A stretch of 17,265 nt of DNA from a virus (taxonomy: Duplodnaviria; Heunggongvirae; Uroviricota; Caudoviricetes): IMG/VR virus record IMGVR_UViG_2778261416_000002, positions 1-17,265 of that record, one strand, 5' to 3'. Made by a program: the position numbers and the translations under genes. This document shows positions 1,363-17,265 of this stretch, piece by piece (positions within the stretch are counted from its first letter, which is position 1; every line of letters starts with the position of its first letter). The notes beneath the pieces are model-generated. The model was not told the origin of the DNA, made no database searches, and saw only the letters and a list, made by a program, of their open reading frames with translations.

Positions 1363-1396
1363 TTAATTTCGATTATTTTTCCCGGATGGAAAATTC

Positions 1397-1440: not shown

Positions 1441-1446
1441 CGTTTC

Positions 1447-1533
1447 GCTGAAAAACATAACCCATAAAATGCTAGCTGTACCAGGAACCACCTCCTTAGC
1501 CTGTGTAATCTCCCTTACACGGGCTTATTTTTT
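1447..1533 (+). ncRNA. cyaR: CyaR (RyeE) Hfq-dependent small RNA
   Basis: The sequence gctgaaaaacataacccataaaatgctagctgtaccaggaaccacctccttagcctgtgtaatctcccttacacgggcttatttttt matches the CyaR sRNA as I recall it. It ends in an intrinsic terminator hairpin (cccttacacggg) plus a T-run. Location between yegQ and a P2-like ogr gene is the known context. Confidence 0.85.
1507..1533. repeat. attL: 27-bp P2 attachment core (aatctcccttacacgggcttatttttt) overlapping the 3' end of cyaR
   Basis: Exact 27-bp direct repeat of 16762..16788. It is the reverse complement of the P2 att core as I recall it (AAAAAATAAGCCCGTGTAAGGGAGATT). Confidence 0.8.
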
Positions 1534-1596
1534 ACGCGTAATACAATGAAATAAAAGGATTTATTTCTGGTCACGTCCACACATTGACCACATCGA

Positions 1597-1622
1597 CAAA
1601 AAAGCCCCTCGACTGAGGGGCT
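1597..1622 (-). terminator. Intrinsic terminator downstream of ogr
   Basis: Stem agcccctc/gaggggct (1603..1610 and 1615..1622, loop gact) followed on the minus strand by a T-run (A-run 1597..1602 on plus). Confidence 0.55.
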
Positions 1623-1634
1623 TCCTGTTTGTAA

Positions 1635-1853
1635 TTACATCCACATAATTTGCTGCCCTGACGGCAACGGGTGCGGCCTTACTGCGTGGACTTCTCCCGG
1701 CTTCACGATGTATCTCTGTACCGACTCATAAGTGATGAACGTGGCGCTGCAATTCACGTTCTGACACTGGTGATAACGCTCTTTTGTCGTGTCAGTGATA
1801 TAGCGGCTTGTACGCGCATGTGCGGCATGCTGGCATAAAGGACAATGAAACAT
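1635..1853 (-). CDS. ogr: Late gene transcriptional activator Ogr (zinc-finger)
   Basis: 72-aa product MFHCPLCQHAAHARTSRYITDTTKERYHQCQNVNCSATF... matches P2 Ogr including the Cys4 zinc-binding pattern. The supplied ORF has a 21-codon upstream extension that I trim to the canonical ATG at 1853. Confidence 0.88.
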   Translation of the reverse strand: MFHCPLCQHAAHARTSRYITDTTKERYHQCQNVNCSATFITYESVQRYIVKPGEVHAVRPHPLPSGQQIMWM

Positions 1854-1934
1854 CGCGAGCACCTCTTCCGGTTTTGTTGATGGTGCCATTTTAGTTAATT
1901 TATCCTTATAAAACAAACAGATAAAATAAAAACA

Positions 1935-3098
1935 TCACTCATCATCTTCTGTTTCGTACTCCACATCAGAAAGCCTGACCTCAAGCTCCAAGGACGTCGT
2001 GAAGCCGCTATTATTCAGAAAATGTGTCACCTTAGTGATTGTCCAGTCCTGCTCGTCTATGACGCGCTTAAAGCCTGACACTTTAACCGGTGTTTCCGTG
2101 TAAATATCAGCACGACCGGTAGCCAGACTGATGGAGAACTCCGCAACGCCCCGTTGCAGCTTATCCCACTTCGCCTGAGCGGCGCGCATGGCCTGTGCTT
2201 TCGTGGCATATACCGTGGTCAGTGCAAAAACGTTGTCAGCCTCACCGGCCATGTATTCACCTTCGCGCGCCTCCGGTACTTTTGGCGCTTTCTTCTGCGT
2301 GACTGGTTTCGCTTTCGGGTGCTCCAGTGCGCGCAGGTGTTTTTCTTTCTTTTTGCGTTTCAGTTTTACCTTCTGCTTTTGCGGCTTCGGGTCTTTGGTG
2401 TGTAACCACTTTGCCGTTACGCCGGTGTAAGCTCCACGGTCAGCAATCGCAAAATGATGACGGTCACCGTCGCTGCGGGTGATGGTAATCTGCGGGATTT
2501 TTTTACCGCTGGCCGTCACCCCCTGCCCCGCTTTGAGAAACAGCAGTTTTCCCATTTTTACCGACACCTCACCGCCGTTGCGTTCAGCAAGGCGGGTCAG
2601 GAATTTTGCATCAGACTCCTGCGACTGGTCGATGTGCGGGATTTTAATTCCGGCCAGTGACGGCGCGACACTGGCTTCCAGCCTGTTACGGGAGGCTATC
2701 GCCTCAACAATCGCACCGAGCGTGGTGTCATGCCATGAGCCTTCACGGCGGGAATTGAGCGTCCCGCGAAAATCTGCACTCCGGGCGCGGATGGTGACCA
2801 CATCCGGCGCGCCCCGGTGTTCAACCTCATCAACGGTGAATTTCCCTTTGCATACCAGGGCAAAACCTTTCCAGCCGATATACACCGTCAGGACAGCGCC
2901 ACGAACCGGCAGCCCGACCTGCCCGTCGGCATCGTTCAGTTCAATATCAAGCTGGTCAGCCTCAAAGCCCCGGTTATCCGTCAGGGTCATACTCATCAGA
3001 CGGTCGCTGATATTGCCGGTAATATCCCTGCTGTCGAGCATCAGCATGTAATCCGGCGTCAGCGTACTGCCTGCATCAAATGTCAGTGCATCCAGCAT
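1935..3098 (-). CDS. D: P2 tail protein D (late control gene D family)
   Basis: 387-aa ORF whose sequence and length match P2 gpD. Its ATG overlaps the U stop codon (TAATG) and it lies immediately upstream of ogr as in P2. Confidence 0.88.
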   Translation of the reverse strand: MLDALTFDAGSTLTPDYMLMLDSRDITGNISDRLMSMTLTDNRGFEADQLDIELNDADGQVGLPVRGAVLTVYIGWKGFALVCKGKFTVDEVEHRGAPDVVTIRARSADFRGTLNSRREGSWHDTTLGAIVEAIASRNRLEASVAPSLAGIKIPHIDQSQESDAKFLTRLAERNGGEVSVKMGKLLFLKAGQGVTASGKKIPQITITRSDGDRHHFAIADRGAYTGVTAKWLHTKDPKPQKQKVKLKRKKKEKHLRALEHPKAKPVTQKKAPKVPEAREGEYMAGEADNVFALTTVYATKAQAMRAAQAKWDKLQRGVAEFSISLATGRADIYTETPVKVSGFKRVIDEQDWTITKVTHFLNNSGFTTSLELEVRLSDVEYETEDDE

Positions 3099-3577
3099 TA
3101 TCCCGCCCCCGTCATACCCGTGAATCTGGTCGCCATACTGCCAGCTTTACCGATGAGCGATTCCGCCTGTTTACCGATATCGCCATAAAGCGCGGCCAGT
3201 GATTCATCAACGCGGGTGAGCGACAGCGTAAAATCAATTTTCCGGGGTGTGCCGTCTGCAAAGAAAATACTCCCTGTTTCACTCACCCTGCTGATGACAT
3301 ACATGCCGTAAATCATGCCGATGCCATCCAGCAACGGCCACGCCCGGCCTTCCTCTGCCATCAGCCTGAGCGTGGTCATCGTCAGCTTTCCGCCGGTCAG
3401 TTCGGGATAAAGCACACCGGCAAGCGTGATGTTTTCCTCGCCAACGCCGAGAAACTGGTAGGCATCCCGTTTACCGATACGGGAATTTGACGGCCAGCGA
3501 TAATCTGATTCACGCTGCATGGTCTGGTGTGGCAGCGTCTGGCGCATAAAAACAAACATACCTAACGCGAGCATCAT
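3098..3577 (-). CDS. U: P2 tail protein U
   Basis: 159-aa ORF between the T C-terminus and D, as in P2. Strong Shine-Dalgarno AGGAGGTGA 6 nt upstream of the ATG. Confidence 0.85.
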   Translation of the reverse strand: MMLALGMFVFMRQTLPHQTMQRESDYRWPSNSRIGKRDAYQFLGVGEENITLAGVLYPELTGGKLTMTTLRLMAEEGRAWPLLDGIGMIYGMYVISRVSETGSIFFADGTPRKIDFTLSLTRVDESLAALYGDIGKQAESLIGKAGSMATRFTGMTGAG

Positions 3578-3591
3578 TTTTCGTCACCTCC

Positions 3592-4911
3592 TTAACCGTC
3601 ATGCATCATGCTGGCACGGGCGCGCGCACGTTTATCCCGCTCGTATTTTTCGAGCGCATCCTGTAACTGGCGGTCAAGCTGTGTCCCCGGCGCAGTACCA
3701 CCCGTCAGGCTGATGTGATATTCGTTTTTACTCTGGTCCACATAAGAGCGGCCAGCCGGTGCCGTAACCGGCTGATAAGCCTGATAGTCTGCATAAGAGC
3801 TGGTCGCCGGAATATAACCACCGCTGCCATACGTGGCGGCTTGAGTTCTGGCGGCGGTCTGGTCAAGTGTGTCTGACTCTTTGTTGATAACACCGAGTTT
3901 TTCCAGTACCCAGTCAATTCCGCTGCGCAGTTTGTTGAACGCATTAAGCGGCAGCATCAGCGCGTCAGCCAGTGCCTGCCCGAACATGACGCCAGTATCA
4001 CGGCAACGGTTCAGGGTGTCCTGGGTGGCTTTGACCGGGGCAATCAGGTTTTTAAACCACTGCCACGCGGCCTGTAACTTTTCGCCCAGCCAGTCAAACA
4101 CCGGCTTAAGTGGCGTGAACAGTTCCCCCACCGGCGCAAATGCCGCTTTCAGCCCTTCCATCACACCGCCAAAGAATGCGCTGACAGGCTCCCAGTATTT
4201 ACGGATAAGCAACGCCCCGGCGACAATGGCGGCCACCACGGCCACAATCAGGTTGTTGGTCGCATCCATCACCAGTGCGTCAAGGCTGGCATAATCACCG
4301 CCCTTACCCACGCGGATAACCTCAGAGGTCGTGTGACCTTCCTCGTCAGTGACCTTGCTCATCACGCGCGCCGGGGCTTCATTGCGGTATTTCTGCAGCC
4401 AGCCGACCGCCACATCCTGCAGCATCGGATTGCTGCTGCGGTCAGAGGTTTCGGCACGCCTCACGCCGTTAAAACCGGCCATGATGAAATCAAGGGACTG
4501 GCGTTTGATAATGGCGTTACGGACACGGAGCTGGAAATCCTGATAACGCGCCCACAGGTCCAGCGTTTTGTAGCGGATATAAAAATCGAAGTTAATCTGG
4601 TCGCATTCGTACTTGTTTGACGCCAGCTTCGAGAAGTCCTTCGGCTGACGCTCGGTGCCACCGGCGGTGTCGGTGGTGCTGGCGATGGAGCCGGTGACAC
4701 CGATGCCAATTTTTTCCCCTTTCATTTCGCTGACCGGCACAATGTTGATGCGGGTCAGAAAGTCAGAGGACTCCTGCATGGTGTTCATCAGGGTCTGGGT
4801 GACCGACGGTTCAACGGTGAATTTTTTCGACACATCACCGGCGTCGATGCCGTTCAGTTCGGCAACACGGGACAGGTAGGCATTAAATTTAAAGCGGGTT
4901 TCCTGGCGCAT
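3592..4911 (-). CDS. Chimeric ORF: N-terminal ~222 aa of major capsid protein gpN fused in frame to C-terminal ~217 aa of tail tape measure protein gpT (deletion derivative)
   Basis: The N-terminus MRQETRFKFNAYLSRVAELNG... up to ...DALVMDATNNLI matches P2 gpN as I recall it, but the ORF is 439 aa where gpN is 357 aa. The C-terminal part has hydrophobic helices (VAVVAAIVAGALLI...) and ends immediately upstream of U, the position of the T 3' end. gpO lies directly upstream. The junction is near nt 4246. Confidence 0.7.
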   Translation of the reverse strand: MRQETRFKFNAYLSRVAELNGIDAGDVSKKFTVEPSVTQTLMNTMQESSDFLTRINIVPVSEMKGEKIGIGVTGSIASTTDTAGGTERQPKDFSKLASNKYECDQINFDFYIRYKTLDLWARYQDFQLRVRNAIIKRQSLDFIMAGFNGVRRAETSDRSSNPMLQDVAVGWLQKYRNEAPARVMSKVTDEEGHTTSEVIRVGKGGDYASLDALVMDATNNLIVAVVAAIVAGALLIRKYWEPVSAFFGGVMEGLKAAFAPVGELFTPLKPVFDWLGEKLQAAWQWFKNLIAPVKATQDTLNRCRDTGVMFGQALADALMLPLNAFNKLRSGIDWVLEKLGVINKESDTLDQTAARTQAATYGSGGYIPATSSYADYQAYQPVTAPAGRSYVDQSKNEYHISLTGGTAPGTQLDRQLQDALEKYERDKRARARASMMHDG

Positions 4912-4969
4912 AGTTTTTCCTGAAATTAAGGGTTAATCGTGAAGGTTTTCCCGGACTGACTGACGCCGG

Positions 4970-5824
4970 TCAGCAGTTCGTCATCAGGGCGTCACCGCCA
5001 CCACCGTTGGCCTTGCTGCGGCGCTGCTGGGTCAGACTTTCGGTGTGGTCGAGACTGTTTTTCAGGCGGGTGAATGCCTGGCTGGTTTCATCCGCCCTGT
5101 CAGTCACATCCTGCTTAAGGGCGGAAAAAGCGGTTTCCATCTCAGCGAGGCGCTGCTCAGTGGCGCTCAGTTTTTCCTGCACATGTTCAGCAACAGCGGT
5201 CACCGCTTCATGCACGTCATTCAGACGGGCGTCATCGCTGGCCTGTTTGCGGCCAAAAATGGACTTCACCTTTTCGGTCAGGGCGGTGAACACGGTTTCA
5301 GGCAGGTCTTCAAATTCCAGCTCAACGGGCGTTGCCACTGAAATCAGGTTTTCAGGGCTTAATTTGAAGCGGTTCAGGGGGTTGTGTTTTGCCGTGCGGC
5401 AGAATTCCAGGTATTCCGTGCCGAGGCTTGCCGGGTCATCGGTGACGGCCAGACCCACCAGATAACATTTGCCGGTATTGGCAAAGTTCGGCTGAATTTC
5501 CATTGAGGTATAGACCTTCTGCGCGGCCTTGTTCATCGCGATAAGGTCATCGGTCGGGGTGATTTTCGCAAACAGCGCCCATTTGCCTTTCAGCGCCGAA
5601 TCATCGTCAATCTTTTCGGCCTTCAGTTCGGCCACATCGCCATAACGCTTAAAAATACCGTCAGGCAGGATGCCTCGCAGATGTTCCAGGTTAATGCGGC
5701 AACCATAGACTCGCGGGTCAAAGGTTTCGGCCATTTCCTGAATATCCTGCGCACTGATGACACGCCCGTCACAGGTGTCACCCTCTACGCCGATACGAAA
5801 GAATTTTGAGACTTTTTTTGCCAT
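4970..5824 (-). CDS. O: Capsid scaffolding protein gpO
   Basis: 284-aa product beginning MAKKVSKFFRIGVEGDTCDGRV... matches P2 gpO. The supplied ORF extends 22 codons further upstream; I trim to the canonical ATG at 5824. Confidence 0.88.
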   Translation of the reverse strand: MAKKVSKFFRIGVEGDTCDGRVISAQDIQEMAETFDPRVYGCRINLEHLRGILPDGIFKRYGDVAELKAEKIDDDSALKGKWALFAKITPTDDLIAMNKAAQKVYTSMEIQPNFANTGKCYLVGLAVTDDPASLGTEYLEFCRTAKHNPLNRFKLSPENLISVATPVELEFEDLPETVFTALTEKVKSIFGRKQASDDARLNDVHEAVTAVAEHVQEKLSATEQRLAEMETAFSALKQDVTDRADETSQAFTRLKNSLDHTESLTQQRRSKANGGGGDALMTNC

Positions 5825-5997
5825 TGTCAGGAGTCCTGAATAGTGATTAGAGGAGTCACATGTCGGCATCAGTTTCCCGACGATGCGCATCCTCCGCCAT
5901 CAGTCCCGGATGGCTTATCACTGACACAACAGCACCTTAGCGAATCGCGGGGCGCGACTCAGTAGCCTTGCCGTGTATTCATCACGGCGAGGTATTC

Positions 5998-7770
5998 ATG
6001 ACCATCACCACAGACACCACTCTTTTACACGACCCGCGTCGTCAGGCGGCGCTGCTGTACTGGCAGGGATTTTCCGTGCCGCAGATTGCCGCCATGTTGC
6101 AGATGAAACGCCCGACGGTGCAGAGCTGGAAACAGCGCGACGGCTGGGACAGCGTTGCCCCCATCAGCCGTGTCGAAATGAGTCTGGAAGCGCGGCTGAC
6201 CCAGCTCATCATCAAACCGCAGAAAACCGGCGGTGACTTCAAGGAAATTGACCTGCTCGGACGCCAGATTGAACGACTGGCACGGGTCAACCGTTACAGT
6301 CAGACCGGCAACGAGGCAGACCTTAATCCGAACGTCGCTAACCGCAACAAAGGCGGGCGGCGCAAACCGAAAAAGAATTTTTTCAGTGACGAGGCCATCG
6401 AAAAGCTGGAGCAGATTTTCTTTGAGCAGTCTTTCGAATATCAGTTGCACTGGTATCGCGCCGGGCTTGAGCACCGCATCCGCGATATCCTGAAATCCCG
6501 CCAGATTGGCGCGACGTTTTATTTTTCCCGCGAGGCGCTGCTGCGCGCCCTGAAAACAGGTCATAACCAGATTTTTCTGTCGGCCAGTAAAACGCAGGCG
6601 TATGTGTTCCGCGAATACATCATCGCCTTTGCCCGGCTGGTTGACGTTGACCTGACCGGTGACCCGATTGTCCTGGGCAATAACGGCGCAAAACTGATTT
6701 TTCTCGGCACCAACTCCAACACCGCGCAGAGCCATAACGGCGACCTGTACGTCGATGAGATTTTCTGGATCCCGAATTTTCAGGTACTGCGTAAGGTGGC
6801 ATCAGGTATGGCCTCACAGAGTCACCTGCGCTCGACCTATTTCTCCACCCCGTCCACGCTGGCGCACGACGCCTACCCGTTCTGGTCGGGTGAACTGTTC
6901 AACCGGGGACGCGCCAGCGCCGCCGAACGCGTGGAAATCGACGTCAGTCATAATGCCCTTGCCGGTGGGCTTCTCTGTGCGGACGGTCAGTGGCGGCAGA
7001 TTGTCACCATTGAGGACGCCCTGAAAGGCGGCTGCACACTGTTCGACATTGAGCAGCTCAAACGCGAAAACAGCGCCGACGATTTTAAAAACCTGTTCAT
7101 GTGTGAATTTGTTGACGACAAGGCGTCGGTATTCCCGTTCGAGGAGCTGCAACGCTGCATGGTCGACACGCTGGAAGAATGGGAAGACTATGCGCCGTTT
7201 GCCGCCAATCCGTTCGGCTCCCGCCCGGTATGGATTGGTTACGACCCGTCACACCGTGGCGACAGCGCCGGATGCGTGGTGCTGGCACCGCCGGTGGTGG
7301 CCGGTGGCAAATTCAGAATACTTGAGCGTCACCAGTGGAAAGGCATGGACTTTGCCACCCAGGCGGAATCCATCCGCAAACTCACCGAAAAATACAACGT
7401 CGAATACATCGGAATTGATGCCACCGGCCTCGGTGTCGGCGTGTTCCAGCTCGTGCGCTCGTTCTATCCCGCCGCGCGCGACATCCGCTACACGCCGGAA
7501 ATGAAAACCGCAATGGTGCTCAAGGCAAAAGACGTTATCCGCCGTGGCTGTCTGGAATATGACGTCAGCGCCACCGACATCACCAGCTCGTTTATGGCTA
7601 TCCGCAAGACCATGACCAGCAGCGGACGCAGCGCCACCTATGAGGCCAGCCGCAGCGAGGAAGCCAGCCACGCCGACCTCGCATGGGCGACCATGCACGC
7701 CCTGTTAAATGAGCCACTCACCGCCGGTATCAGCACCCCGCTGACATCCACCATTCTGGAGTTTTACTGA
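5998..7770 (+). CDS. P: Terminase ATPase (large) subunit gpP
   Basis: 590-aa product beginning MTITTDTTLLHDPRRQAALLYWQGFSVPQIA... matches P2 gpP. The supplied ORF begins at a TTG at 5968; the ATG at 5998 has a GAGG Shine-Dalgarno 5 nt upstream. Divergent from O, as in P2. Confidence 0.88.
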   Translation: MTITTDTTLLHDPRRQAALLYWQGFSVPQIAAMLQMKRPTVQSWKQRDGWDSVAPISRVEMSLEARLTQLIIKPQKTGGDFKEIDLLGRQIERLARVNRYSQTGNEADLNPNVANRNKGGRRKPKKNFFSDEAIEKLEQIFFEQSFEYQLHWYRAGLEHRIRDILKSRQIGATFYFSREALLRALKTGHNQIFLSASKTQAYVFREYIIAFARLVDVDLTGDPIVLGNNGAKLIFLGTNSNTAQSHNGDLYVDEIFWIPNFQVLRKVASGMASQSHLRSTYFSTPSTLAHDAYPFWSGELFNRGRASAAERVEIDVSHNALAGGLLCADGQWRQIVTIEDALKGGCTLFDIEQLKRENSADDFKNLFMCEFVDDKASVFPFEELQRCMVDTLEEWEDYAPFAANPFGSRPVWIGYDPSHRGDSAGCVVLAPPVVAGGKFRILERHQWKGMDFATQAESIRKLTEKYNVEYIGIDATGLGVGVFQLVRSFYPAARDIRYTPEMKTAMVLKAKDVIRRGCLEYDVSATDITSSFMAIRKTMTSSGRSATYEASRSEEASHADLAWATMHALLNEPLTAGISTPLTSTILEFY

Positions 7771-8804
7771 TGAGCAAGAAAAAAGGGAAAACACCGCAAC
7801 CTGCGGCAAAAAAAATGACCGCCAGCGCCCTGAAAATGGAGGCATTCACCTTTGGTGAGCCGGTGCCGGTACTCGACCGCCGTGACATTCTGGATTACGT
7901 CGAGTGCATCAGTAACGGCAGATGGTATGAGCCACCGGTCAGCTTTACCGGTCTGGCAAAAAGCCTGCGTGCTGCCGTGCATCACAGCTCACCGATTTAC
8001 GTTAAACGCAATATTCTGGCCTCGACATTTATCCCGCATCCGTGGCTTTCTCAGCAGGATTTTAGCCGCTTTGTACTGGATTTTCTGGTGTTCGGTAATG
8101 CGTTTCTGGAAAAGCGTTACAGCACCACCGGTAAGGTCATCAGACTGGAAACCTCACCGGCAAAATATACCCGCCGTGGTGTGGAAGAGGATGTTTACTG
8201 GTGGGTGCCGTCCTTCAACGAGCCGACACCTTTCACGCCCGGCTCCGTGTTTCACCTGCTGGAGCCGGATATTAATCAGGAGCTGTACGGCCTGCCGGAA
8301 TATCTCAGCGCCCTTAATTCTGCCTGGCTGAATGAGTCGGCCACGCTGTTCCGCCGCAAGTATTACGAAAACGGCGCACATGCCGGATACATCATGTACG
8401 TCACTGATGCCGTGCAGGATCGCAACGATATCGAAATGCTTCGCGAAAACATGGTTAAGTCGAAAGGCCGCAACAACTTTAAAAACCTGTTTCTCTATGC
8501 CCCGCAGGGGAAAGCTGACGGCATTAAAATTATCCCGCTCAGTGAAGTGGCAACGAAGGACGATTTTTTTAATATCAAAAAAGCCAGCGCCGCTGACCTG
8601 CTGGACGCACACCGCATCCCCTTTCAGTTGATGGGCGGCAAGCCGGAGAACGTCGGGTCGCTGGGTGATATTGAGAAAGTGGCAAAGGTCTTTGTCCGCA
8701 ATGAGCTTATCCCGTTACAGGACAGGATCCGCGAGATAAACGGCTGGCTCGGTCAGGAGGTCATCCGCTTTAAAAACTACTCACTGGACACTGACAACGG
8801 CTGA
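7770..8804 (+). CDS. Q: Portal (capsid portal vertex) protein gpQ
   Basis: 344-aa product matching P2 gpQ in sequence and length. Its start overlaps the P stop (TGATG). It is transcribed toward cos, as in P2. Confidence 0.88.
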   Translation: MSKKKGKTPQPAAKKMTASALKMEAFTFGEPVPVLDRRDILDYVECISNGRWYEPPVSFTGLAKSLRAAVHHSSPIYVKRNILASTFIPHPWLSQQDFSRFVLDFLVFGNAFLEKRYSTTGKVIRLETSPAKYTRRGVEEDVYWWVPSFNEPTPFTPGSVFHLLEPDINQELYGLPEYLSALNSAWLNESATLFRRKYYENGAHAGYIMYVTDAVQDRNDIEMLRENMVKSKGRNNFKNLFLYAPQGKADGIKIIPLSEVATKDDFFNIKKASAADLLDAHRIPFQLMGGKPENVGSLGDIEKVAKVFVRNELIPLQDRIREINGWLGQEVIRFKNYSLDTDNG

Positions 8805-8808
8805 ACAT

Positions 8809-8830
8809 CGCCGCCTGCGGGCGGCTTTTT
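8809..8830 (+). terminator. Intrinsic terminator downstream of Q
   Basis: GC stem gccgcc/ggcggc with loop tgcg, followed by tttttt (8825..8830). Confidence 0.6.
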
Positions 8831-8965
8831 TACACCCCGCCCTCACACGCTCACCACCGCACAAAACATCCCGCAGACACACCAACGCCCCGGCGAACAA
8901 TCTAAACGCCATCACGACGCGCTCAGACGCTGAAAAAATAAAATCAGCACTACCGCCAGCGCGCA

Positions 8966-8984
8966 GTGCTTTCCCCGCCTCGCC
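8966..8984. other. cos site: 19-nt cohesive-end sequence of P2 (gtgctttccccgcctcgcc, reverse complement of GGCGAGGCGGGGAAAGCAC)
   Basis: Exact match to the P2 19-nt cohesive end as I recall it, in the expected position just past the 3' end of Q. Confidence 0.8.
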
Positions 8985-9008
8985 CGCCCGCTTCATGAGA
9001 CGGTTTTA

Positions 9009-10721
9009 ATGCAGTTGCATTATGTCCCGCTCCTCAGTGCTGCGCTCCATCCTGATTACAAAAACCGTTATCAAAAACACATGCAAATAGACGCAGTCAA
9101 ATGCGCTACCGCCTCTCGCAATACCTTCAATTTCATGATAAAAAACATCATCCCTAACAAGAGCATTATCCTCATGAAAAAAGTATATGAACTAACCAGT
9201 GAAGAAGCACTGTCATATTTTCTTCGCCATGACTCCTACACAACCTTAGAATTACCGGCTTATATTAATTTCACCACATTATTAAATGATATTAATTCAT
9301 CTATCCATAACAAAAAAATTAAAATTGAACCAACCGCCAAGGAGCTGATGGGTAAAGATATCAATTATGAGGTGCTTGTCAGTAAAGATGGTCTATATAG
9401 CTGGCGTAGGATAACACTTATCAATCCCCTTTATTATGTCTACTTCTGTAGAAAAATCACAGCACCAGCAACCTGGGAAATCATAACAGAAAAATTCAAA
9501 TCTTTTGAATCAAACGACCTTTTTACATGTTCAAGCATCCCCGTCAGAAAAGACAACTCGTCAAACATTGCTGCATCTGTAATGAATTGGTGGGAAGATT
9601 TTGAACAAAAAAGCCTTGCCCTTGCTCTTGAATACGAATTCATGTTCAGCACTGACATCTCAAACTTCTACCCATCAATATATACTCATAGTTTTGAATG
9701 GGTATTCATATCAAAAGAAGAGGCAAAGAAGAAAAAAAGCAAAAATAACCCAGGAGGATTAATTGACAGCCACATTCAAATGATGATGAACAACCAGACA
9801 AATGGTATTCCACTCGGCAGCACATTGATGGATACATTTGCTGAGCTTATCTTGGGTCAAATCGATATAGAATTAAGAAAAAAAACTAACGAACTCAAAA
9901 TAATAAACTACAAGGTAGTACGCTATCGTGATGATTACCGGATCTTCTCTAATAGCAAAGATGATTTAGACATAATATCAAAATGTTTAGTCAATGTATT
10001 GGGCGATTTTGGTTTAGATCTAAACTCAAAAAAAACTGAACTATATGAAGACATCATACTTCATTCGTTGAAACAAGCTAAAAAAGACTACATCAAAGAA
10101 AAAAGACATAAGTCACTCCAGAAAATGCTCTATTCAATATATTTATTTTCACTTAAACATCCAAACTCGAAAACAACCGTTAGATATCTAAATGATTTTC
10201 TTAGGAATTTATTTAAGCGAAAGACAATTAAAGATAACGGCCAACAGGTTGATGCTATGCTTGGTATTATTTCAAGCATCATGGCAAAAAACCCTACAAC
10301 GTACCCAGTAGGAACGGCAATTTTCTCAAAACTCCTCAGTTTTCTTTATGGTGATGACACCCAAAAAAAATTAACAAAGCTAGAACAACTCCATAAAAAA
10401 CTGGATAAACAACCCAATACAGAAATGCTTGACATATGGTTTCAGCGAACTCAAGCAAAAATAAACCTAGAGTGGGATAAATCTTATAAGTCAGCTCTAT
10501 GCGTCCGTATAAATGATGAACTCACAAAAGAGAAAACATTTTCTGTAAATAATTTATGGAATATTGACTGGATCCAAGGAAAAGAAACAAGCCCCAATAA
10601 AGCCAAAATATTATCCTTGCTAAGAAAAACAAAAATCGTTGACACAGATAAATTTGATAAAATGGATGAAAATATAACACCTGAAGAAGTTAATCTATTC
10701 TTTAAAGAGCACAGCAATTAA
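9009..10721 (+). CDS. Reverse transcriptase, stand-alone defence-associated type (Abi-P2 / UG-Abi-like) with a C-terminal helical extension
   Basis: RT motif A FSTDISNFYPSI (about 9645..9680), motif B NGIPLGSTLMDTFAELIL (9801..9854) and motif C VRYRDDY (9918..9938). The ORF is strongly AT-rich compared with flanking phage genes and sits in the cos-to-A variable locus. The true start may be an internal ATG at 9135 or 9174; the latter has aagag about 10 nt upstream. Confidence 0.8.
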   Translation: MQLHYVPLLSAALHPDYKNRYQKHMQIDAVKCATASRNTFNFMIKNIIPNKSIILMKKVYELTSEEALSYFLRHDSYTTLELPAYINFTTLLNDINSSIHNKKIKIEPTAKELMGKDINYEVLVSKDGLYSWRRITLINPLYYVYFCRKITAPATWEIITEKFKSFESNDLFTCSSIPVRKDNSSNIAASVMNWWEDFEQKSLALALEYEFMFSTDISNFYPSIYTHSFEWVFISKEEAKKKKSKNNPGGLIDSHIQMMMNNQTNGIPLGSTLMDTFAELILGQIDIELRKKTNELKIINYKVVRYRDDYRIFSNSKDDLDIISKCLVNVLGDFGLDLNSKKTELYEDIILHSLKQAKKDYIKEKRHKSLQKMLYSIYLFSLKHPNSKTTVRYLNDFLRNLFKRKTIKDNGQQVDAMLGIISSIMAKNPTTYPVGTAIFSKLLSFLYGDDTQKKLTKLEQLHKKLDKQPNTEMLDIWFQRTQAKINLEWDKSYKSALCVRINDELTKEKTFSVNNLWNIDWIQGKETSPNKAKILSLLRKTKIVDTDKFDKMDENITPEEVNLFFKEHSN

Positions 10722-10730
10722 TATCCCAAA

Positions 10731-10760
10731 GCCATGTTAGTAACATAACATGGCTTTTTT
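10731..10760 (+). terminator. Intrinsic terminator downstream of the RT gene (possibly bidirectional with convergent gene A)
   Basis: Hairpin gccatgtt-agtaacat-aacatggc followed by tttttt (10755..10760), 10 nt after the RT stop codon. Confidence 0.6.
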
Positions 10761-10824
10761 AAATCACTCATTATCAGTTATCAAGAACGAACATAACATT
10801 CTATTCCGAGGAGTTAAATTATCA

Positions 10825-13110
10825 TTAGATCCACTTAATATCCGTTATATCCTCCAGCCACTCCTCATCTACCAGATAGGTGAATTTTTTCCCGTCATAA
10901 TTTACGGTTGCTCCACGCGCCAGCGCCTCAAGCTCCCATCGCTGCGGCCTGATACCGTTCTGAGCGAGGTCAACGCGGATACGGGTAATTTGCATTCGTT
11001 CCGACCGGGTCAGTCTGGCCGATGGTGCCATTTCATACTGTTTTAACGGGCTTCCGTTTCTCTGCTGACGATTTGGTGTTCTCAGTCCGCATTTTAATGC
11101 ACCTCTGAGCGCCCTCACAACCTCCGGGTCACTCCATTCGATAACACCGTCATCAACCAGATTAAGCACTGCTGCGGCGTGTTCAGAAGGTGTGGGAGCC
11201 GGTAACGAAGTATCACCACCGGTGAGCTTTCCACAGTTATTGACAGGACTCCGAGGCGCGGCGATGCCGCTTTTTAAAGTCAAAGGCTCAACGACCGGCA
11301 CTTTCGGAACAATGCGCCAGTCCGTCGTTCTGGTGATATGAATATGACGCGCGCCGAGATGCGGCGCGTAAATGCCGACCACTCTCTCGACTTCTTCCTC
11401 GTACTCGTTAACTTCATCCGACGGACTACGGGCGACCCTGACAGTCTGACAATCGCGCGGGACATTTGCCCCACCCTGCGCGCTGATATACAGCGCAAAA
11501 TCGCCACTGTCTGCGGCAGCGCGTGCAGCCTCGACGCGTTCGTCAAACTCATCAGCAATGCTGACGCCGCGAGGTAATTTGCGTAGTTCACGGTAAGCCC
11601 CCATTGTCGGCAGGCCAACCGTTTTAAATTGCGGAATGCGCCACGTTGACGCCCATGCGGTAACAGCCGCGGCAGTGTCTTTCAGCGGCCTGCCGGTGTC
11701 GTTATCGAGCTGACCATCCAGTGCATAGCCGTCGATGTTTTTTGAAATGTATTTCGCGATATACCCCGCAGCACCGCCCCGGTTAAGGTGTTTTGCCTGA
11801 AAACGGTTTCGCGCGGCTCCTCTTTCGTCGCCATCCTCTTTGAGCGCATAGCGACGCATGATTTCGATAATCTGGTTACGCTGGCGCGGATTACAAAAAA
11901 GCATCATATGCCAGTGCGGCGTTCCGTCGTGGTGTGGCTCGACGACACGCAAACCGTAGACCTGTAAATCATTATCCTTGAATGCCGTGCGCATCAGGCT
12001 CCAGATACGGCAGAGATAACGCTGCGCATCCTTTGGATTAAATGCCTCATCGTTCCAGCCGTGATTTAGCTGGACGGTTTTACTTTCGCCTTTTCTGACC
12101 TGACGTGTCGGGTGATACTTTGACGGCGCGGTCAGCGTGATAAACATCCCCACATCACCCTCTGCTGCGGCGTAACGCTCAATACCGGCAATGGTGTTCA
12201 TCAGCTCCATCCGGCGAATTTCAGGATTAGAAATACTGCCCATCACCTTACTGATAAGGTCGATGCGCTCGCCGGTTTCCCTGTTTTCAAGGTCACACGA
12301 TTTAAGAAATTCCAGATTTGCCTGGCGGCGCGCACGCACATCACGAATGGCATGTTTACTGGCATAAGGAGAACGGTCTTTATTGACCTCCCCGACAGCT
12401 ATCAGTAACGCTTCATGCCAGCGCATACGCTGGCCTTTAAGCTGATGAGTCCACCACTCATCGTTAAACAGACGGGCAATGGCAGAATATGCCTGCCTCG
12501 TGGTCATCTGTCCTTTACGGTATTTTTTCCAGTAGAGCGGGGAAATATTGAAAGCACGTGCAGCGCCAGCAACATGACCATACAGGTGAGCCTGCGCCTC
12601 ATCCGTAAACAGCGATTCTTTTTCACCATGCGCATCAACCCATGCATCACAGAGTTCCTCATACATCATGAAAAGCTGCGATGAGATACGGGCGGCAAAC
12701 TTTTTCAGCTCCTTGTCATTCATTCCCGGCAGGCGCGCATAGTGATCACGCTCTGCCAGAAACAGCAACGACGCGTCGGTGTTCATTTCATGGCGCTGAT
12801 TCACACGCTCAATGCGCGGCCATAAACGACGCTGAAAAGTAGATGTGAGGAAATAAAACCCGTGCACCGGGCTTTTATTGCGCCGGATGTAGTCATAGCG
12901 TGAAGTAAACAGCGAGCGCAAAAAGTAAGGCAGGCGGTTAATCGTGGATAAAACACCTTGCACCTGACGCATCTCGTCACGTGTAAGAGGTCTTTCGCGC
13001 CCGACAGCCTCGCGTGGCGCGTTCCATGCATAAGCACCGGTAAACGCCTTACCGGTGCCTGCGGTAAATGCTGACGGAGGGACAAAACGCCCGGAGGCTT
13101 TAACGGCCAT
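10825..13110 (-). CDS. A: Replication initiation protein gpA (rolling-circle endonuclease)
   Basis: 761-aa product beginning MAVKASGRFVPPSAFTAG... matches P2 gpA in length and N-terminus. It contains the HxH-type motif region (PHWHMMLF) and tyrosine-rich region typical of the family. The supplied ORF begins at an upstream TTG; I trim to the ATG at 13110. Confidence 0.88.
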   Translation of the reverse strand: MAVKASGRFVPPSAFTAGTGKAFTGAYAWNAPREAVGRERPLTRDEMRQVQGVLSTINRLPYFLRSLFTSRYDYIRRNKSPVHGFYFLTSTFQRRLWPRIERVNQRHEMNTDASLLFLAERDHYARLPGMNDKELKKFAARISSQLFMMYEELCDAWVDAHGEKESLFTDEAQAHLYGHVAGAARAFNISPLYWKKYRKGQMTTRQAYSAIARLFNDEWWTHQLKGQRMRWHEALLIAVGEVNKDRSPYASKHAIRDVRARRQANLEFLKSCDLENRETGERIDLISKVMGSISNPEIRRMELMNTIAGIERYAAAEGDVGMFITLTAPSKYHPTRQVRKGESKTVQLNHGWNDEAFNPKDAQRYLCRIWSLMRTAFKDNDLQVYGLRVVEPHHDGTPHWHMMLFCNPRQRNQIIEIMRRYALKEDGDERGAARNRFQAKHLNRGGAAGYIAKYISKNIDGYALDGQLDNDTGRPLKDTAAAVTAWASTWRIPQFKTVGLPTMGAYRELRKLPRGVSIADEFDERVEAARAAADSGDFALYISAQGGANVPRDCQTVRVARSPSDEVNEYEEEVERVVGIYAPHLGARHIHITRTTDWRIVPKVPVVEPLTLKSGIAAPRSPVNNCGKLTGGDTSLPAPTPSEHAAAVLNLVDDGVIEWSDPEVVRALRGALKCGLRTPNRQQRNGSPLKQYEMAPSARLTRSERMQITRIRVDLAQNGIRPQRWELEALARGATVNYDGKKFTYLVDEEWLEDITDIKWI

Positions 13111-13375
13111 ATGAGCCAAAAGCCTCTGAACAACGCTTGCTGAGTTGCTCAACCTGCGCGTTTAAATCAGCAAAAGATTTTGCGCTTCCGGTCAGAATAT
13201 CGTGATGCATCAGGCCGGAAACGAGCTGGCCTAATTTCGGGTAATAACCAACCACCGCCAGCCATTCCTGACCGGCGTTTTTACCGCTTTCCGCTCTCTT
13301 TTTCTCGTGGAGAATAAACTGAAAGCTGTCACTGGTAACGACATAACGTTCGCCAATTTCAATACGAATACTCAT
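13100..13375 (-). CDS. P2 Orf83-like small early protein (function unknown)
   Basis: 91-aa ORF in the orf83 position immediately upstream of A. Its ATG overlaps the preceding stop (ATGA), with a GGAGAA Shine-Dalgarno. Confidence 0.65.
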   Translation of the reverse strand: MSIRIEIGERYVVTSDSFQFILHEKKRAESGKNAGQEWLAVVGYYPKLGQLVSGLMHHDILTGSAKSFADLNAQVEQLSKRCSEAFGSYGR

Positions 13376-13596
13376 GCCGTTCTCCGGTAATGTTTGTTTT
13401 TTGCTTCAAAGACTGACTGACAGGAAACACAACGCGTGGCTGACGGATAAGCCGCACGACGGGCAGCAGGTATTGGCGCGTCACACTCTTCGCAAACCAG
13501 CGCAGAAACACCGCAATGTTTTACCCTTGCCGCGTTAATCTGGCGCTCCAGTAATTCAGCCTGTTGTTCCTGAATAAAATCCACGTTGTCCGGCAT
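13372..13596 (-). CDS. P2 Orf82-like C4 zinc-finger protein (TraR/DksA family)
   Basis: 74-aa ORF with a CxxC...CxxC pattern (CEECDAPIPAARR...CVSCQ) characteristic of TraR/DksA-type zinc fingers, in the orf82 position. Confidence 0.7.
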   Translation of the reverse strand: MPDNVDFIQEQQAELLERQINAARVKHCGVSALVCEECDAPIPAARRAAYPSATRCVSCQSVFEAKNKHYRRTA

Positions 13597-13898
13597 TACC
13601 AGCTCCTTTTGTCGTTCAGCTTCTTAAATTCATCAGCGCAATAACTGGCGAGTTCTGTCGTTAATTTTGTCAGTTCATCCACTGAGGAAATTTGCTTGTG
13701 GAATACAGCGCGTTTAACAAGTAAATTGACCACATCAGACAGGAGGTTTAATTCACTCTGATAAATCGCGATAACAGATTCAGTTATTTCGCGCTTCTCT
13801 TTATCAATACCAAGTTGAATAAGAGACAAATCACCATTTTTCATAACGGCGATTTTTAAGGCGTTATTCAGTAATACAACCGAACGAGAACAGGACAT
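13596..13898 (-). CDS. P2 Orf81-like small early protein (function unknown)
   Basis: 100-aa ORF from the ATG at 13898, which overlaps the orf80 stop (ATGA). The supplied ORF starts one codon earlier at a TTG. Confidence 0.65.
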   Translation of the reverse strand: MSCSRSVVLLNNALKIAVMKNGDLSLIQLGIDKEKREITESVIAIYQSELNLLSDVVNLLVKRAVFHKQISSVDELTKLTTELASYCADEFKKLNDKRSW

Positions 13899-14122
13899 CA
13901 AAGCACCTCCCCGCGAGACAATCCGATATTGTGAAATTTTTCCGACTCCTGACTGAGCAGCTCAACTATCTCCACGCGGGATAACTCCGCCTTTGTGATG
14001 TGGCGAATCATGGCGTCAAGATGAGAAGAAAAGCGCGTCGCAGCGTCGGCCTGTGCTTCGGTTCTGGCCTGTTGCAGCAGTAATGCGTATTTACCGCACT
14101 GATTTTCAGAAACTGTATGCAT
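13898..14122 (-). CDS. P2 Orf80-like small early protein (function unknown)
   Basis: 74-aa ORF with a GGAGAAAG Shine-Dalgarno upstream of the ATG, in the early operon between B and orf81. Confidence 0.65.
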
Positions 14123-14185
14123 GACTTTCTCCAGGCAAAAAGAAGCCCCGCACGATTAAGTGCGTTAAAAACTCTGGTTAATTAC

Positions 14186-14686
14186 TTAATGCAGATATTG
14201 CTCTGGTTTTACCGACGTCAGAATTGTCGGTGCATACTCAAACAGGCTGAATAATTCACGTAATGCACGGAATAAAGCATCACGCCAGTAACATGACTCT
14301 TCATTAATTCGCCAGTATGGCTGGTTAAATTCTTTTTCAGTCAATCCGGCATGCATAAATAAAGTACGACGCTGACTGACTGTTAAAAAACTAATATATG
14401 CATACTCACTTGCACCGACCTGACGACGTTTTGAGAATGCCCCACGCAATTCATCAATTGCACATACCAGTCGTTCACGTTCGACGTCGTTCATTTCTTC
14501 AAAACGCATCGTTGCGTGACGCTGTTTTAACTGCGCATGAAAGCAAACTGTTAGCCGTTCGCGCTCCATCATCTGATTATAATAATCACATGTATCCTGC
14601 CAGCGAGGAACGGCAAGATGCTTACCAATTATCCGGCGCATAGCTGCTGGCTGTTTTTCAACGAGATTGAGCGTCATCACTGTCAT
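14186..14686 (-). CDS. B: Replication protein gpB (helicase loader-like)
   Basis: 166-aa product MTVMTLNLVEKQPAAMRRIIGKHLAVPRWQDTCDYYNQMMERERL... matches P2 gpB. A GGAGGG Shine-Dalgarno is optimally spaced for the ATG at 14686 rather than the one at 14692. Confidence 0.85.
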   Translation of the reverse strand: MTVMTLNLVEKQPAAMRRIIGKHLAVPRWQDTCDYYNQMMERERLTVCFHAQLKQRHATMRFEEMNDVERERLVCAIDELRGAFSKRRQVGASEYAYISFLTVSQRRTLFMHAGLTEKEFNQPYWRINEESCYWRDALFRALRELFSLFEYAPTILTSVKPEQYLH

Positions 14687-14853
14687 TTCCATACCCTCCG
14701 GCTTTTCAGAAAGGTCAGAGCCTTTTTTAACGGACTCTGTTTTTTGGTGCGGATAATGATTCCCTTACGCCCCTTACCGTGGGTGATGGTGAAGTCAATC
14801 GCCCTGGGGCTTTCGTTACGCAGTAACTGAGCAATACAACGAGGCTCATTCAT
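14683..14853 (-). CDS. P2 Orf78-like small protein (function unknown)
   Basis: 56-aa ORF with a perfect AAGGAGA Shine-Dalgarno 5 nt upstream of the ATG at 14853. Its stop overlaps the B start (ATGA). The supplied ORF begins at an upstream GTG. Confidence 0.6.
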   Translation of the reverse strand: MNEPRCIAQLLRNESPRAIDFTITHGKGRKGIIIRTKKQSPLKKALTFLKSRRVWK

Positions 14854-14863
14854 ACGGTTCTCC

Positions 14864-15139
14864 TTAACGTGGTTCACCGAGACCTAACCACATCAACCAG
14901 CCGTCACGAATCTCTTTAGGTCGGCTTTCATAAGCCAGTTTTAGTCCGTTATTCCATGCCGGAAGGTATACCCAATATTCACCTGCACGACCTGAAGCTG
15001 ATTGTGGATCGGTCATATCAATTACAGGCAGCTTTCCTTTATCGATCATCCGACGAACCGCTCCTGTCGATTTTCCTATTAGTTTTGCGAACTCCTGATA
15101 AGGAATCGCATCAGTCATGAGTGTTACTTGCTTGCTCAT
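14864..15139 (-). CDS. cox: Cox protein (excisionase and repressor of Pc; directionality factor)
   Basis: 91-aa product MSKQVTLMTDAIPYQEFAKLIGKSTGAVRRMIDKGKLPVIDMTD... matches P2 Cox. It is divergent from C and first gene of the early operon. Confidence 0.88.
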   Translation of the reverse strand: MSKQVTLMTDAIPYQEFAKLIGKSTGAVRRMIDKGKLPVIDMTDPQSASGRAGEYWVYLPAWNNGLKLAYESRPKEIRDGWLMWLGLGEPR

Positions 15140-15149
15140 GTCGTCCTCT

Positions 15150-15260
15150 AGCCCTCATGAATTGCGTTTAATGTCTTATAATGCCTTTTAGTGCCCACAT
15201 CCAAGCACTAAACAATCTACATCTAAACTAAATACTATTGAGATCTAAACACCATGTCAA
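15150..15260. promoter_or_regulatory. Immunity switch region: candidate Pc (-10 tataat 15177..15182, plus strand), candidate Pe (-35 ttgaca and -10 tagtat on minus strand, plus-strand coordinates 15255..15260 and 15233..15238), and two 8-bp direct-repeat C operators atctaaac (15221..15228, 15243..15250)
   Basis: Hexamers are read directly from the sequence; the Pe spacer is 16 bp. The two direct repeats are 22 bp centre to centre and flank the Pe -10, as described for P2 C repressor operators O1/O2. Predicted Pe and Pc transcripts would converge and overlap. Confidence 0.55.
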
Positions 15261-15553
15261 ACACGATAAGCGAGAAGATAGTCTTAATGCGAAAATCAGA
15301 GTATTTGAGCAGACAACAACTTGCTGATTTAACAGGGGTTCCGTATGGCACGCTGAGTTACTATGAAAGTGGTCGTTCAACACCTCCAACAGATGTCATG
15401 ATGAACATCCTGCAGACCCCACAATTCACCAAATACACTTTATGGTTCATGACCAATCAGATCGCTCCTGAGTCCGGGCAAATTGCGCCCGCTCTCGCAC
15501 ACTTTGGGCAAAACGAAACAACGTCGCCCCACTCCGGTCAAAAGACTGGTTAA
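15254..15553 (+). CDS. C: Immunity repressor C
   Basis: 99-aa product MSNTISEKIVLMRKSEYLSRQQLADLTGVPYGTLSYYESGRSTPP... matches P2 C repressor, with the helix-turn-helix region QQLADLTGVPYGTLSYYE. Confidence 0.88.
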   Translation: MSNTISEKIVLMRKSEYLSRQQLADLTGVPYGTLSYYESGRSTPPTDVMMNILQTPQFTKYTLWFMTNQIAPESGQIAPALAHFGQNETTSPHSGQKTG

Positions 15554-15668
15554 CAATTCATCGTGAATATATTCATCACAAGTGCCTACTATTGGTGGCT
15601 AAATTTCAGCCACCACGAAAAAAGCGATTAGTAGTCGCAAAAAAACACACCACTCGGAGGGTTTTCTG

Positions 15669-16682
15669 ATGGCAATCAAAAAACTCGATGATGGTCGATA
15701 TGAAGTGGACATCCGCCCTACTGGACGTAATGGAAAACGCATCCGTAGGAAGTTTGATAAGAAAAGCGAAGCTGTCGCTTTCGAGAAATACACGTTGTAC
15801 AACCACCACAATAAAGAATGGCTATCAAAACCAACAGACAAGCGACGTCTGTCGGAGCTGACACAGATCTGGTGGGATTTAAAGGGTAAACACGAAGAGC
15901 ATGGGAAATCTAATCTTGGAAAAATTGAAATCTTCACAAAAATAACGAATGACCCATGCGCATTTCAAATTACGAAATCGCTTATCAGCCAGTACTGCGC
16001 CACCCGAAGAAGTCAGGGTATTAAACCTTCGAGTATCAATCGTGATTTAACATGTATTAGCGGCATGTTTACAGCCCTGATTGAAGCGGAGTTATTCTTT
16101 GGTGAGCACCCTATCAGAGGGACAAAAAGGCTTAAGGAGGAAAAACCAGACACAGGCTATCTCACGCAGGAAGAAATTGCCTTACTGCTTGCTGCTCTTG
16201 ACGGCGACAACAAAAAGATTGCGATTCTTTGCCTGAGTACTGGAGCACGTTGGGGAGAAGCAGCTCGTTTGAAAGCAGAAAATATCATCCATAACCGCGT
16301 CACGTTTGTTAAAACGAAAACAAACAAACCACGCACCGTCCCGATCTCAGAGGCTGTTGCCAAAATGATCGCGGATAACAAACGAGGTTTTTTATTCCCT
16401 GATGCTGATTACCCTCGCTTCAGACGAACAATGAAAGCAATAAAACCGGATTTGCCAATGGGGCAAGCCACACATGCACTAAGGCACAGCTTTGCCACTC
16501 ATTTCATGATTAATGGAGGAAGTATTATCACGCTACAACGGATACTAGGTCACACGCGGATTGAGCAAACTATGGTTTACGCTCATTTTGCGCCAGAGTA
16601 CCTTCAGGACGCCATTTCTCTTAATCCGCTAAGAGGTGGTACTGAGGCCGAGAGTGTCCACACAGTGTCCACAGTAGAGTAA
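15669..16682 (+). CDS. int: Tyrosine site-specific integrase
   Basis: 337-aa product matching P2 Int. The C-terminal catalytic region has HALRHSFATHF and LGHTRIEQTMVYAHF (R, H-x-x-R and Y). GGAGGG Shine-Dalgarno upstream. It lies adjacent to attR. Confidence 0.88.
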   Translation: MAIKKLDDGRYEVDIRPTGRNGKRIRRKFDKKSEAVAFEKYTLYNHHNKEWLSKPTDKRRLSELTQIWWDLKGKHEEHGKSNLGKIEIFTKITNDPCAFQITKSLISQYCATRRSQGIKPSSINRDLTCISGMFTALIEAELFFGEHPIRGTKRLKEEKPDTGYLTQEEIALLLAALDGDNKKIAILCLSTGARWGEAARLKAENIIHNRVTFVKTKTNKPRTVPISEAVAKMIADNKRGFLFPDADYPRFRRTMKAIKPDLPMGQATHALRHSFATHFMINGGSIITLQRILGHTRIEQTMVYAHFAPEYLQDAISLNPLRGGTEAESVHTVSTVE

Positions 16683-16761
16683 CGTTTAAGGGCTTTCAGT
16701 GGTAATTTATGCCGCTCAAACCCGCATTGTACCGTTGAAAGCCCCTACTGGTGACACCCTA

Positions 16762-16788
16762 AATCTCCCTTACACGGGCTTATTTTTT
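16762..16788. repeat. attR: second copy of the 27-bp P2 attachment core
   Basis: Exact repeat of 1507..1533; this copy is followed by one extra T. It lies 80 bp downstream of int. Confidence 0.8.
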
Positions 16789-16947
16789 TATGCATAAGCC
16801 CTATCTCTGGTAACCGTCTTCCATTGACCACATCGATAGAATCCTCCTTCATAGCACGATGCCTTTCACTTATCGGCATCGTGCTCCCACAGGTTCCGGC
16901 TACGCACAGCCAGAACGCGCATATTTGACGCTTACCAAAAAATATTC

Positions 16948-17265
16948 TCACTCTCCACATTTGAATGTCAGACGAGCGACACCATGTAATCCTACACCTT
17001 CTGTCTTCAGCTCAACTATTTGCATTTTTTTGCCCTGAGTAACACAGAAATGAGTTGCATCATTTTTTACTATATTTTCTGCACCAGATATTCTGCCCCT
17101 GGCTAAAGAAGCTTCGGCTTCGGTGTAGTATTGGTTATCGAGTTTACGCTGAATATTACTTTTATATGCAAGACCAAATTTACCGATACTTGTCTCATCA
17201 TTATGCACAGCACAACCAGACATAATAAAAATACTAATTAATGATATAGCAGCTATCTTTTTCAT
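16948..17265 (-). CDS. yegR: Small lipoprotein YegR-like (signal peptide with lipobox, function unknown)
   Basis: Complete 105-aa ORF whose ATG is the last three bases of the window. The N-terminus MKKIAAISLISIFIMSGC has a signal peptide and lipobox cysteine. Position after the cyaR-linked P2-like element matches E. coli yegR. Confidence 0.7.
   Translation of the reverse strand: MKKIAAISLISIFIMSGCAVHNDETSIGKFGLAYKSNIQRKLDNQYYTEAEASLARGRISGAENIVKNDATHFCVTQGKKMQIVELKTEGVGLHGVARLTFKCGE

Follow-up and report, generated by a model that had tools for sequence, protein, structure and literature searches.

We analysed a window of 17,265 nucleotides (the whole stretch of DNA under study, positions 1 to 17,265 of IMG/VR record IMGVR_UViG_2778261416_000002) and found that its reverse transcriptase (RT) gene is, judged by sequence identity, archetypal Abi-P2, essentially the orf570 allele of phage P2-EC30, and not a member of the Drt4, Drt3b or AbiK sister families. 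The long C-terminal extension of the encoded protein, which had been singled out in an initial annotation, is very probably best explained, taking the evidence as a whole, as the helical domain of Abi-P2, a single-gene abortive-infection polymerase, protein-primed and untemplated, that a P2-like prophage carries as lysogen-protecting cargo. The features that bear on this reading are collected in Table 1, with residues numbered from the first codon of the maximal ORF.

Table 1. Positions in the window of the Abi-P2 gene, of its functional elements and of neighbouring features.
Feature	Position	Strand	Basis or remark
Maximal ORF, 570 aa ('orf570'), Abi-P2 polymerase gene	9009..10721	+	ORF list
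Tyr85 (Tyr61 in published numbering), priming tyrosine, ELPAYINF, fingers alpha2-alpha3 loop	9261..9263	+	Published mutants; conservation
Asp216, motif A FSTDISNFYPSIYTHS	9654..9656	+	At least 95% conserved; within RVT_1 match
Motif C, Y-R-D-D, aa 306-309	9924..9935	+	Family signature RYRDDYRIF
Last palm helix and LDLNSKKTEL hairpin (motif D/E), aa 320-345	9966..10043	+	RVT_1 match runs to aa 355
C-terminal helical domain (alpha-solenoid, 'alphaRep'), aa 346-570	10044..10718	+	Residues 322-541 of 7R08 plus 5 more
Portal gene Q	7770-8804		
Exact 19-nt GGCGAGGCGGGGAAAGCAC	8966..8984	-	One match versus 0 expected
12-bp hairpin and T-run, likely intrinsic terminator of the RT gene	10728..10757	+	dG -16.2 kcal/mol
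Gene A	10825-13152	-	Convergent with the RT gene

A sequence search of the PDB matched aa 25-565 of the ORF to entry 7r08 ('Reverse transcriptase', 1202 bits) at 539 of 541 residues, an identity of 99.6% to the crystallised Abi-P2 protein of phage P2-EC30 (PDB 7R08; Figiel et al. 2022, PMC9508834), and at the DNA level the gene is 99.7% identical to AM157365.1, 'Bacteriophage P2-EC30 proviral ORF570 DNA for reverse transcriptase'. The initial annotation had placed the protein among the Abi-type RTs, in agreement with these matches and with the PADLOC AbiP2 HMM (1e-161), which spans aa 56-568 and positions 4-487 of the 489 in the model. The PADLOC runners-up (Drt6, RT_UG14, Drt4, Drt3b and AbiK) were all far weaker, and the NCBIfam equivalog models for Drt4 and Drt3b scored far under their own cut-offs. 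Drt4, among the closest HMM families behind Drt6 and RT_UG14 (PADLOC 1e-39, NCBIfam 3e-34), reached 118.8 bits against an NCBIfam cut-off of 450 bits, indicating a related protein and not a member of that family.

With the P2-EC30 gene (orf570; AM157365 / CAJ43154; 7R08) the window's copy shares its position in the P2 variable locus, the YRDD motif, Tyr61 and the helical domain; it differs at two positions of the helical domain, both with conservative replacements (D490, N there; E553, D there), and in that its host prophage is a deletion derivative. Nothing found in the analysis speaks against the identification as P2-EC30 Abi-P2. P2-EC58 orf544 and other enterobacterial homologues (P0002-P0054) have the same architecture in 514-544 aa at 70-81% identity, with RYRDDYRIF and Tyr85 invariant as in the window's ORF, and differ from the window's allele by 19-30%. 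An allele of about 75% identity is commoner in E. coli, with 258 member sequences (cluster P0037) versus 185 for the window's allele, and the latter is rare: at least 80% of segment 8805-10830 is present in 10 of 5,426 complete E. coli genomes, the backbone part of the same segment being matched in 2,156 of the 5,426.

The whole window corresponds to one P2-like prophage, deleted and defective, with the order trhP/yegQ, ogr, D, U, a fusion ORF, O, P, Q, the RT gene, A, early genes, int and yegR. The 19-nt element between Q and the RT gene (Table 1) is one that we take to be the P2 cohesive-end (cos) sequence, and it marks where the backbone ends just ahead of the RT cargo. From 8805 to about 9020 the DNA is 92-94% identical to that of many P2-like phages without an RT; the shared DNA ends at about 9020, where the GC content falls, and the RT gene itself has a GC content of 34%, compared to 50% for the whole window and 53-56% for the flanking genes. 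The RT gene resides in the stretch bounded by cos and the 3' end of gene A, a variable locus with other cargo in other P2 relatives, and Abi-P2 has been described within a hypervariable region (Figiel et al., PMC9508834; Mestre et al., PMC9226505). Inserted in this cos-to-gene-A locus, the low-GC cargo gene would be expressed as a lysogen-protecting gene. Downstream, the terminator hairpin (z -7.7; 0 of 200 shuffles equally stable) separates the RT gene from the convergent gene A. A plus-strand ORF at 10750-11046 was judged to be spurious, as its start falls within this hairpin, it overlaps with gene A and no family matches it. A promoter consensus scan returned 7 sites versus 6.6 in shuffled sequences, none of them usefully placed for the RT gene.

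Three start codons are in use for this gene: ATG 9009 (570 aa), the basis of the historical name orf570; ATG 9081 (M25, 546 aa), the start of the AM157365.1 CDS and of the crystallised construct; and ATG 9174 (M56, 515 aa), the PGAP call. A convincing Shine-Dalgarno sequence is absent at all three. ATG 9009 sits 25 nt from cos, within DNA common to RT-less phages, and is probably not the real start of the gene; M25 and M56 are the candidates, and M56 marks the position at which the family HMM begins, as do most homologues (514-518 aa). Published Abi-P2 numbering begins at M25 of the 570-aa ORF, Tyr46 and Tyr61 landing on tyrosines in that register alone. The choice of start shifts residue numbers and leaves the C-terminal domain unaffected.

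In the RT core, Asp216 of motif A is presumably the first catalytic aspartate, going by general knowledge of the RT family. The initial annotation had drawn attention to an unusual arginine in motif C, and this arginine is a fixed trait of the family: R307, D308 and D309 are each found in 114 of 114 homologues and Y306 in 113 of the 114. The observation is correct and not new, the conserved Arg of YxDD having been noted as a peculiarity of the Abi-P2 group by Simon & Zimmerly (2008, PMC2602772); among relatives, motif C reads YIDD in DRT4 and YVDD in DRT3b (the latter also in the 9wy8 alignment). The YRDD codons fall just upstream of the interval flagged in the initial annotation, 9966..10721. 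Residues 320-345, among which K342 and T343 are invariant in homologues, are still part of the palm even though they lie inside that interval.

[quoted passage not shown] By analogy with DRT3b, in which protein-templated synthesis via R241/E22 has been shown, R307 (R283 in 7R08) might even help to determine, from the protein side, which nucleotide is chosen; the products would then be compositionally biased or patterned ('protein-templated') and not random, a proposal that we regard as distinctly improbable. The text of Figiel et al. (PMC9508834) reports no product sequencing for Abi-P2, which leaves room for the arginine to bias nucleotide choice, and the sizes of Abi-P2 products are described there as discrete, about 40 nt and >100 nt, unlike those of AbiK.

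The flagged interval comprises aa 320-570 and the stop codon, and the peptides quoted from it in the initial annotation are present. It had been described as a Lys-rich extension of about 250 residues that follows the RT core and is helical by composition. The helical character was borne out, and the length and the Lys enrichment need to be qualified: with aa 320-345 in the palm, the extension proper is formed by approximately aa 346-570, about 225 residues and not 250, and while aa 320-570 do contain 14.3% Lys (K+R 17.1% versus D+E 12.7%), the Lys content is not significantly above the 9.1% of the N-terminal part (Fisher p = 0.06). Lys enrichment was therefore rejected as a domain-specific signal, and the excess largely reflects the AT-richness of the entire gene. 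An AlphaFold2 model of aa 340-570 (68 homologues), the kind of structure prediction that the initial annotation had proposed, yielded a confident, all-helical alpha-solenoid (mean pLDDT 88.6, pTM 0.84) of about 11 main helices, the first of which begins at approximately aa 342. Among the structural matches listed for this model, 7R08 came first, followed by HEAT/ARM-type repeats, and nearly all of the listed matches beyond 7r08 were helical-repeat or other alpha-helical scaffold proteins. The fusion of an RT domain to C-terminal HEAT-like alpha-helical repeats, a trait of class 1 UG/Abi RTs, is present in the window's protein.

When aa 346-570 were searched alone, 7r08 was the sole PDB match (1e-141) and AbiP2 the sole PADLOC match (2.5e-43), and NCBIfam returned no match. 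The comparison with the C-terminal domains of AbiK and Abi-P2 that had been suggested at the outset gave a match for Abi-P2 and not for AbiK, the PADLOC HMM of which (2e-29) covers aa 201-494 of the protein only and does not match the C-terminal fragment alone, arguing against AbiK membership. Since the region is the solved Abi-P2 helical domain, it aligns confidently to a characterised domain, an outcome that the initial annotation had itself counted against its proposal that the extension carries a priming residue or an effector function. Its view that the extension is not an RNase H, a maturase X domain or a canonical thumb was upheld. For an RNase H C-terminal to the polymerase, as in retroviral-type RTs, there was no family match and the model is without beta-sheet. 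A group II intron RT/maturase was rejected with TIGR04416 scoring 39.5 bits against a cut-off of 300; this match (residues 198-355 of the 515-aa query, corresponding to aa 253-410 of the ORF) runs about 65 residues past the palm. Likewise, for a maturase X/thumb or nuclease domain in the C-terminus, Pfam, NCBIfam and PADLOC gave no matches other than Abi-P2, and the all-helical model has helical repeats as its neighbours. Pfam recognised RVT_1 alone in the whole protein (aa 197-355), with no significant match after it.

The published structure shows what such a domain does in Abi-P2. The protein has RT-like fingers and palm and no thumb; an 11-helix alpha-solenoid starts where the palm ends and returns in the direction of the fingers, its first helices taking the place of the thumb. 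The solenoid and the RT lobe jointly shape a narrow, C-shaped channel, which fits single-stranded and not duplex nucleic acid (PMC9508834). Helices alpha1', alpha2', alpha4' and alpha6' make the contacts of a trimer, possibly arranged as a dimer of trimers, and a requirement for oligomerisation was probed by mutation in AbiK only (PMC9508834). Mestre et al. (PMC9226505) introduced the name alphaRep domain for this element of class 1 UG/Abi RTs and found that UG15 loses defence upon removal of 38 C-terminal residues; deleting 46 C-terminal residues of AbiK likewise abolishes defence (PMC9508834).

Conservation within the Abi-P2 family is lowest in the helical domain, with a mean identity of 32% versus 50% for the palm among 59 distant homologues, and K355, K358, N386, P429, W477, Q479, R480, C498, W517, W521 and E560 are near-invariant in it. 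The effector function that the initial annotation had entertained, with the domain acting as a separate nuclease or other toxin switched on by DNA synthesis, would find room in the fact that the step by which Abi-P2 kills or blocks is not settled in the literature, Figiel et al. themselves stating in their discussion that neither the trigger nor the killing step is known (PMC9508834). We nevertheless consider it very unlikely, as Pfam, NCBIfam and PADLOC hold nothing for the domain except Abi-P2 itself, its fold is a solenoid with almost exclusively helical scaffolds among the matches listed after 7r08, and the conserved Trp, Lys and Gln-Arg residues form no recognisable catalytic motif. Less improbable, but still unlikely in our estimation, is that the domain would, in addition to its structural role, sense or dock a protein of T5 or of the host by which the response is triggered or stabilised. 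The analogy comes from DRT4 and DRT6, which are activated through a phage DNA-binding protein, and the strong divergence of the domain would fit arms-race pressure; however, lower conservation may merely reflect weaker constraint on a scaffold, and the target of the phage protein in DRT4 is the ssDNA product and not the alphaRep domain.

As for the start of DNA synthesis, the initial annotation had suggested that the priming residue lies in the extension. The priming tyrosine of Abi-P2, Tyr85 in the window's ORF, precedes the helical domain by about 260 residues, which places it well upstream of the flagged region, and is retained by all 114 homologues, the most distant of which have 35% identity. 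Figiel et al. (PMC9508834) chose Y46 and Y61 from the region that matches the priming loop of AbiK and reported that Y61F makes no DNA and that Y46F has wild-type activity; the priming role of Tyr61 rests on this loss of activity, the 7R08 crystal being without DNA and no adduct having been observed. That a Tyr, Ser or Thr of the extension starts DNA synthesis instead is extremely unlikely. Class 1 relatives do prime at various sites (Tyr125 of the palm in DRT4, Tyr298 or Tyr303 of the RT-alphaRep linker in AbiA and Tyr666 of a C-terminal tail in DRT3b), a C-terminal priming residue had been proposed for AbiK in earlier literature, and the extension contains two conserved hydroxyl positions, S353 (95%) and position 471 (Ser, Thr or Tyr in 98% of homologues), and no others. 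By contrast, no tyrosine of aa 346-570 is more than 86% conserved, a covalent link to the equivalent fingers-loop residue, Tyr44, has been directly observed in AbiK, and the published Y61F result carries more weight than the conservation of a hydroxyl that might serve as another priming site within the extension. Given the varied priming sites among class 1 RTs the suggestion was a reasonable one, yet for Abi-P2 it is contradicted.

The original Abi-P2 paper of Odegrip et al. from 2006 reportedly termed the protein a 'functional reverse transcriptase' in its title, and several DRTs use a neighbouring ncRNA. On this basis the enzyme could be conceived as a template-dependent RT that copies an adjacent ncRNA, as DRT2, DRT9 and DRT10 do, with a C-terminal domain that binds RNA. 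We give this hardly any credence, as purified Abi-P2 is free of nucleic acid and synthesises DNA without a template or nucleic-acid primer, requiring the hydroxyl of Tyr61, and its channel is too narrow for a duplex (PMC9508834). An associated ncRNA was also rejected for the window, in which an E-value scan of 8600-11000 detected no Rfam family and in which cos and backbone DNA fill the upstream spacer and the terminator the downstream one.

That the helical domain supports protein-primed, untemplated DNA synthesis, as the initial annotation had surmised for Abi-type RTs, has thus been shown for a protein 99.6% identical to that of the window (PMC9508834), and orf570 is known to confer resistance to phage T5 (PMC9508834; PMC2602772). 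For the Abi-P2 of the window we envisage that the Lys/Arg-rich helical domain may help to retain the nascent ssDNA in the channel and that, upon T5 infection, the protein-linked ssDNA would become toxic or block replication. In DRT4, host exonucleases are kept off the product by a phage DNA-binding protein (PMC12783706) and, by analogy, such a protein may stabilise the ssDNA product of Abi-P2.

Comparison with related systems places these properties in context. AbiK of Lactococcus lactis (7R06/7R07) likewise combines RT-like fingers and palm, no thumb and a C-terminal alpha-solenoid, forms three-fold oligomers and conducts protein-primed, untemplated ssDNA synthesis that starts on a Tyr of the alpha2-alpha3 loop of the fingers; unlike Abi-P2, it has 16 helices versus 11 and is a stable hexamer. 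DRT4, a UG15-related class 1 UG/Abi RT that assembles as a hexamer, is also a single-gene, template-independent and protein-primed system, with an alphaRep domain instead of a thumb and with activity against T5, but it differs from Abi-P2 in priming from the palm and in its YIDD motif. DRT3b, another protein-primed, hexameric class 1 RT with an alphaRep domain, differs from Abi-P2 in its priming residue (Tyr666), in its protein-templated poly(dC-dA) product, in its YVDD motif and in having a second RT and an ncRNA as partners.

The gene, the structure, the priming residue, the helical domain and the YRDD peculiarity are all already published, and with the crystal structure, the priming tyrosine and YRDD in the literature the finding is an ordinary one as a discovery. 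Its value is one of annotation, in that the Abi-P2 allele of known structure, a rare one, is recognised almost unchanged in a deleted P2 remnant.

The P2-like prophage is defective. Matches to P2-phage DNA are interrupted at ~4235-4247, inside an ORF on the minus strand whose 5' part corresponds to N, the major capsid protein of P2, over its first ~223 residues (Pfam model Phage_cap_P2, matched at positions 1-210 of its 327) and whose 3' part, joined in frame to N, is the C-terminal portion of the tape-measure protein T (phrog_28). Missing from the prophage by deletion are the genes for terminase subunit M and head completion protein L, along with the lysis, baseplate and tail genes. The prophage lies between two host flanks (see table), and at the same locus E. 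coli K-12 presumably retains only ogrK/yegZ as a P2 remnant.

Coordinates of the prophage features and of the flanking host genes
Feature	Position	Strand	Remarks
trhP/yegQ	1-1362	+	U32 peptidase family; one flank of prophage
ogr	1635-1853	-	adjoins left prophage junction
N-T fusion ORF	3592-4911	-	junction about 4235-4247
cos-like sequence GGCGAGGCGGGGAAAGCAC	8966-8984	-	exact copy, 0 expected by chance
Hairpin with T-run	10728-10757		12-bp, strong; dG -16.2, z -7.7
yegR	16948-17265	-	other flank of prophage

The cargo gene encodes the Abi-P2 polymerase (RT), whose allele in the window is rare among complete E. coli genomes: at least 80% of the segment 8805-10830 is covered in 10 of 5,426. In the comparison with E. 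coli genomes, the whole window, with RT and N-T deletion together, was found in no complete genome. Sequence variation was also seen within the helical domain (the C-terminal residues 346-570), as residue 490 (10476-10478), which varies among near-identical copies, is D in the window, N in 7R08 (the crystal structure of Abi-P2 from P2-EC30) and S in P0001, the representative of one cluster of RT homologues, while residue 553 (10665-10667), in the same domain, is E in the window versus D in 7R08.

The start of the RT is ambiguous, with three annotations giving 570 aa (from 9009), 546 aa (from 9081; used in GenBank and for the crystallised construct) and 515 aa (from 9174; PGAP). The ATG at 9009, 25 nt away from cos, belongs to backbone DNA common to P2 phages that lack the RT, and the third of these starts, Met 56 of the 570-aa ORF, is the point at which the family HMM and most RT homologues begin. 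The cos-like sequence, which we take to be the 19-nt P2 cohesive end, has the portal-gene terminator (8810-8825) on one side and the RT on the other.

At the other end, the RT and gene A converge and are separated by the hairpin. An ORF on the plus strand (10750-11046, 98 aa) that begins within this hairpin, overlaps gene A and matches no family looks spurious. The RT cargo is coextensive with a sharply edged island of low GC content (~9020-10800; 29-40% versus 53-61% in the flanking DNA), which is what one would expect of horizontally acquired DNA in the variable locus of P2.
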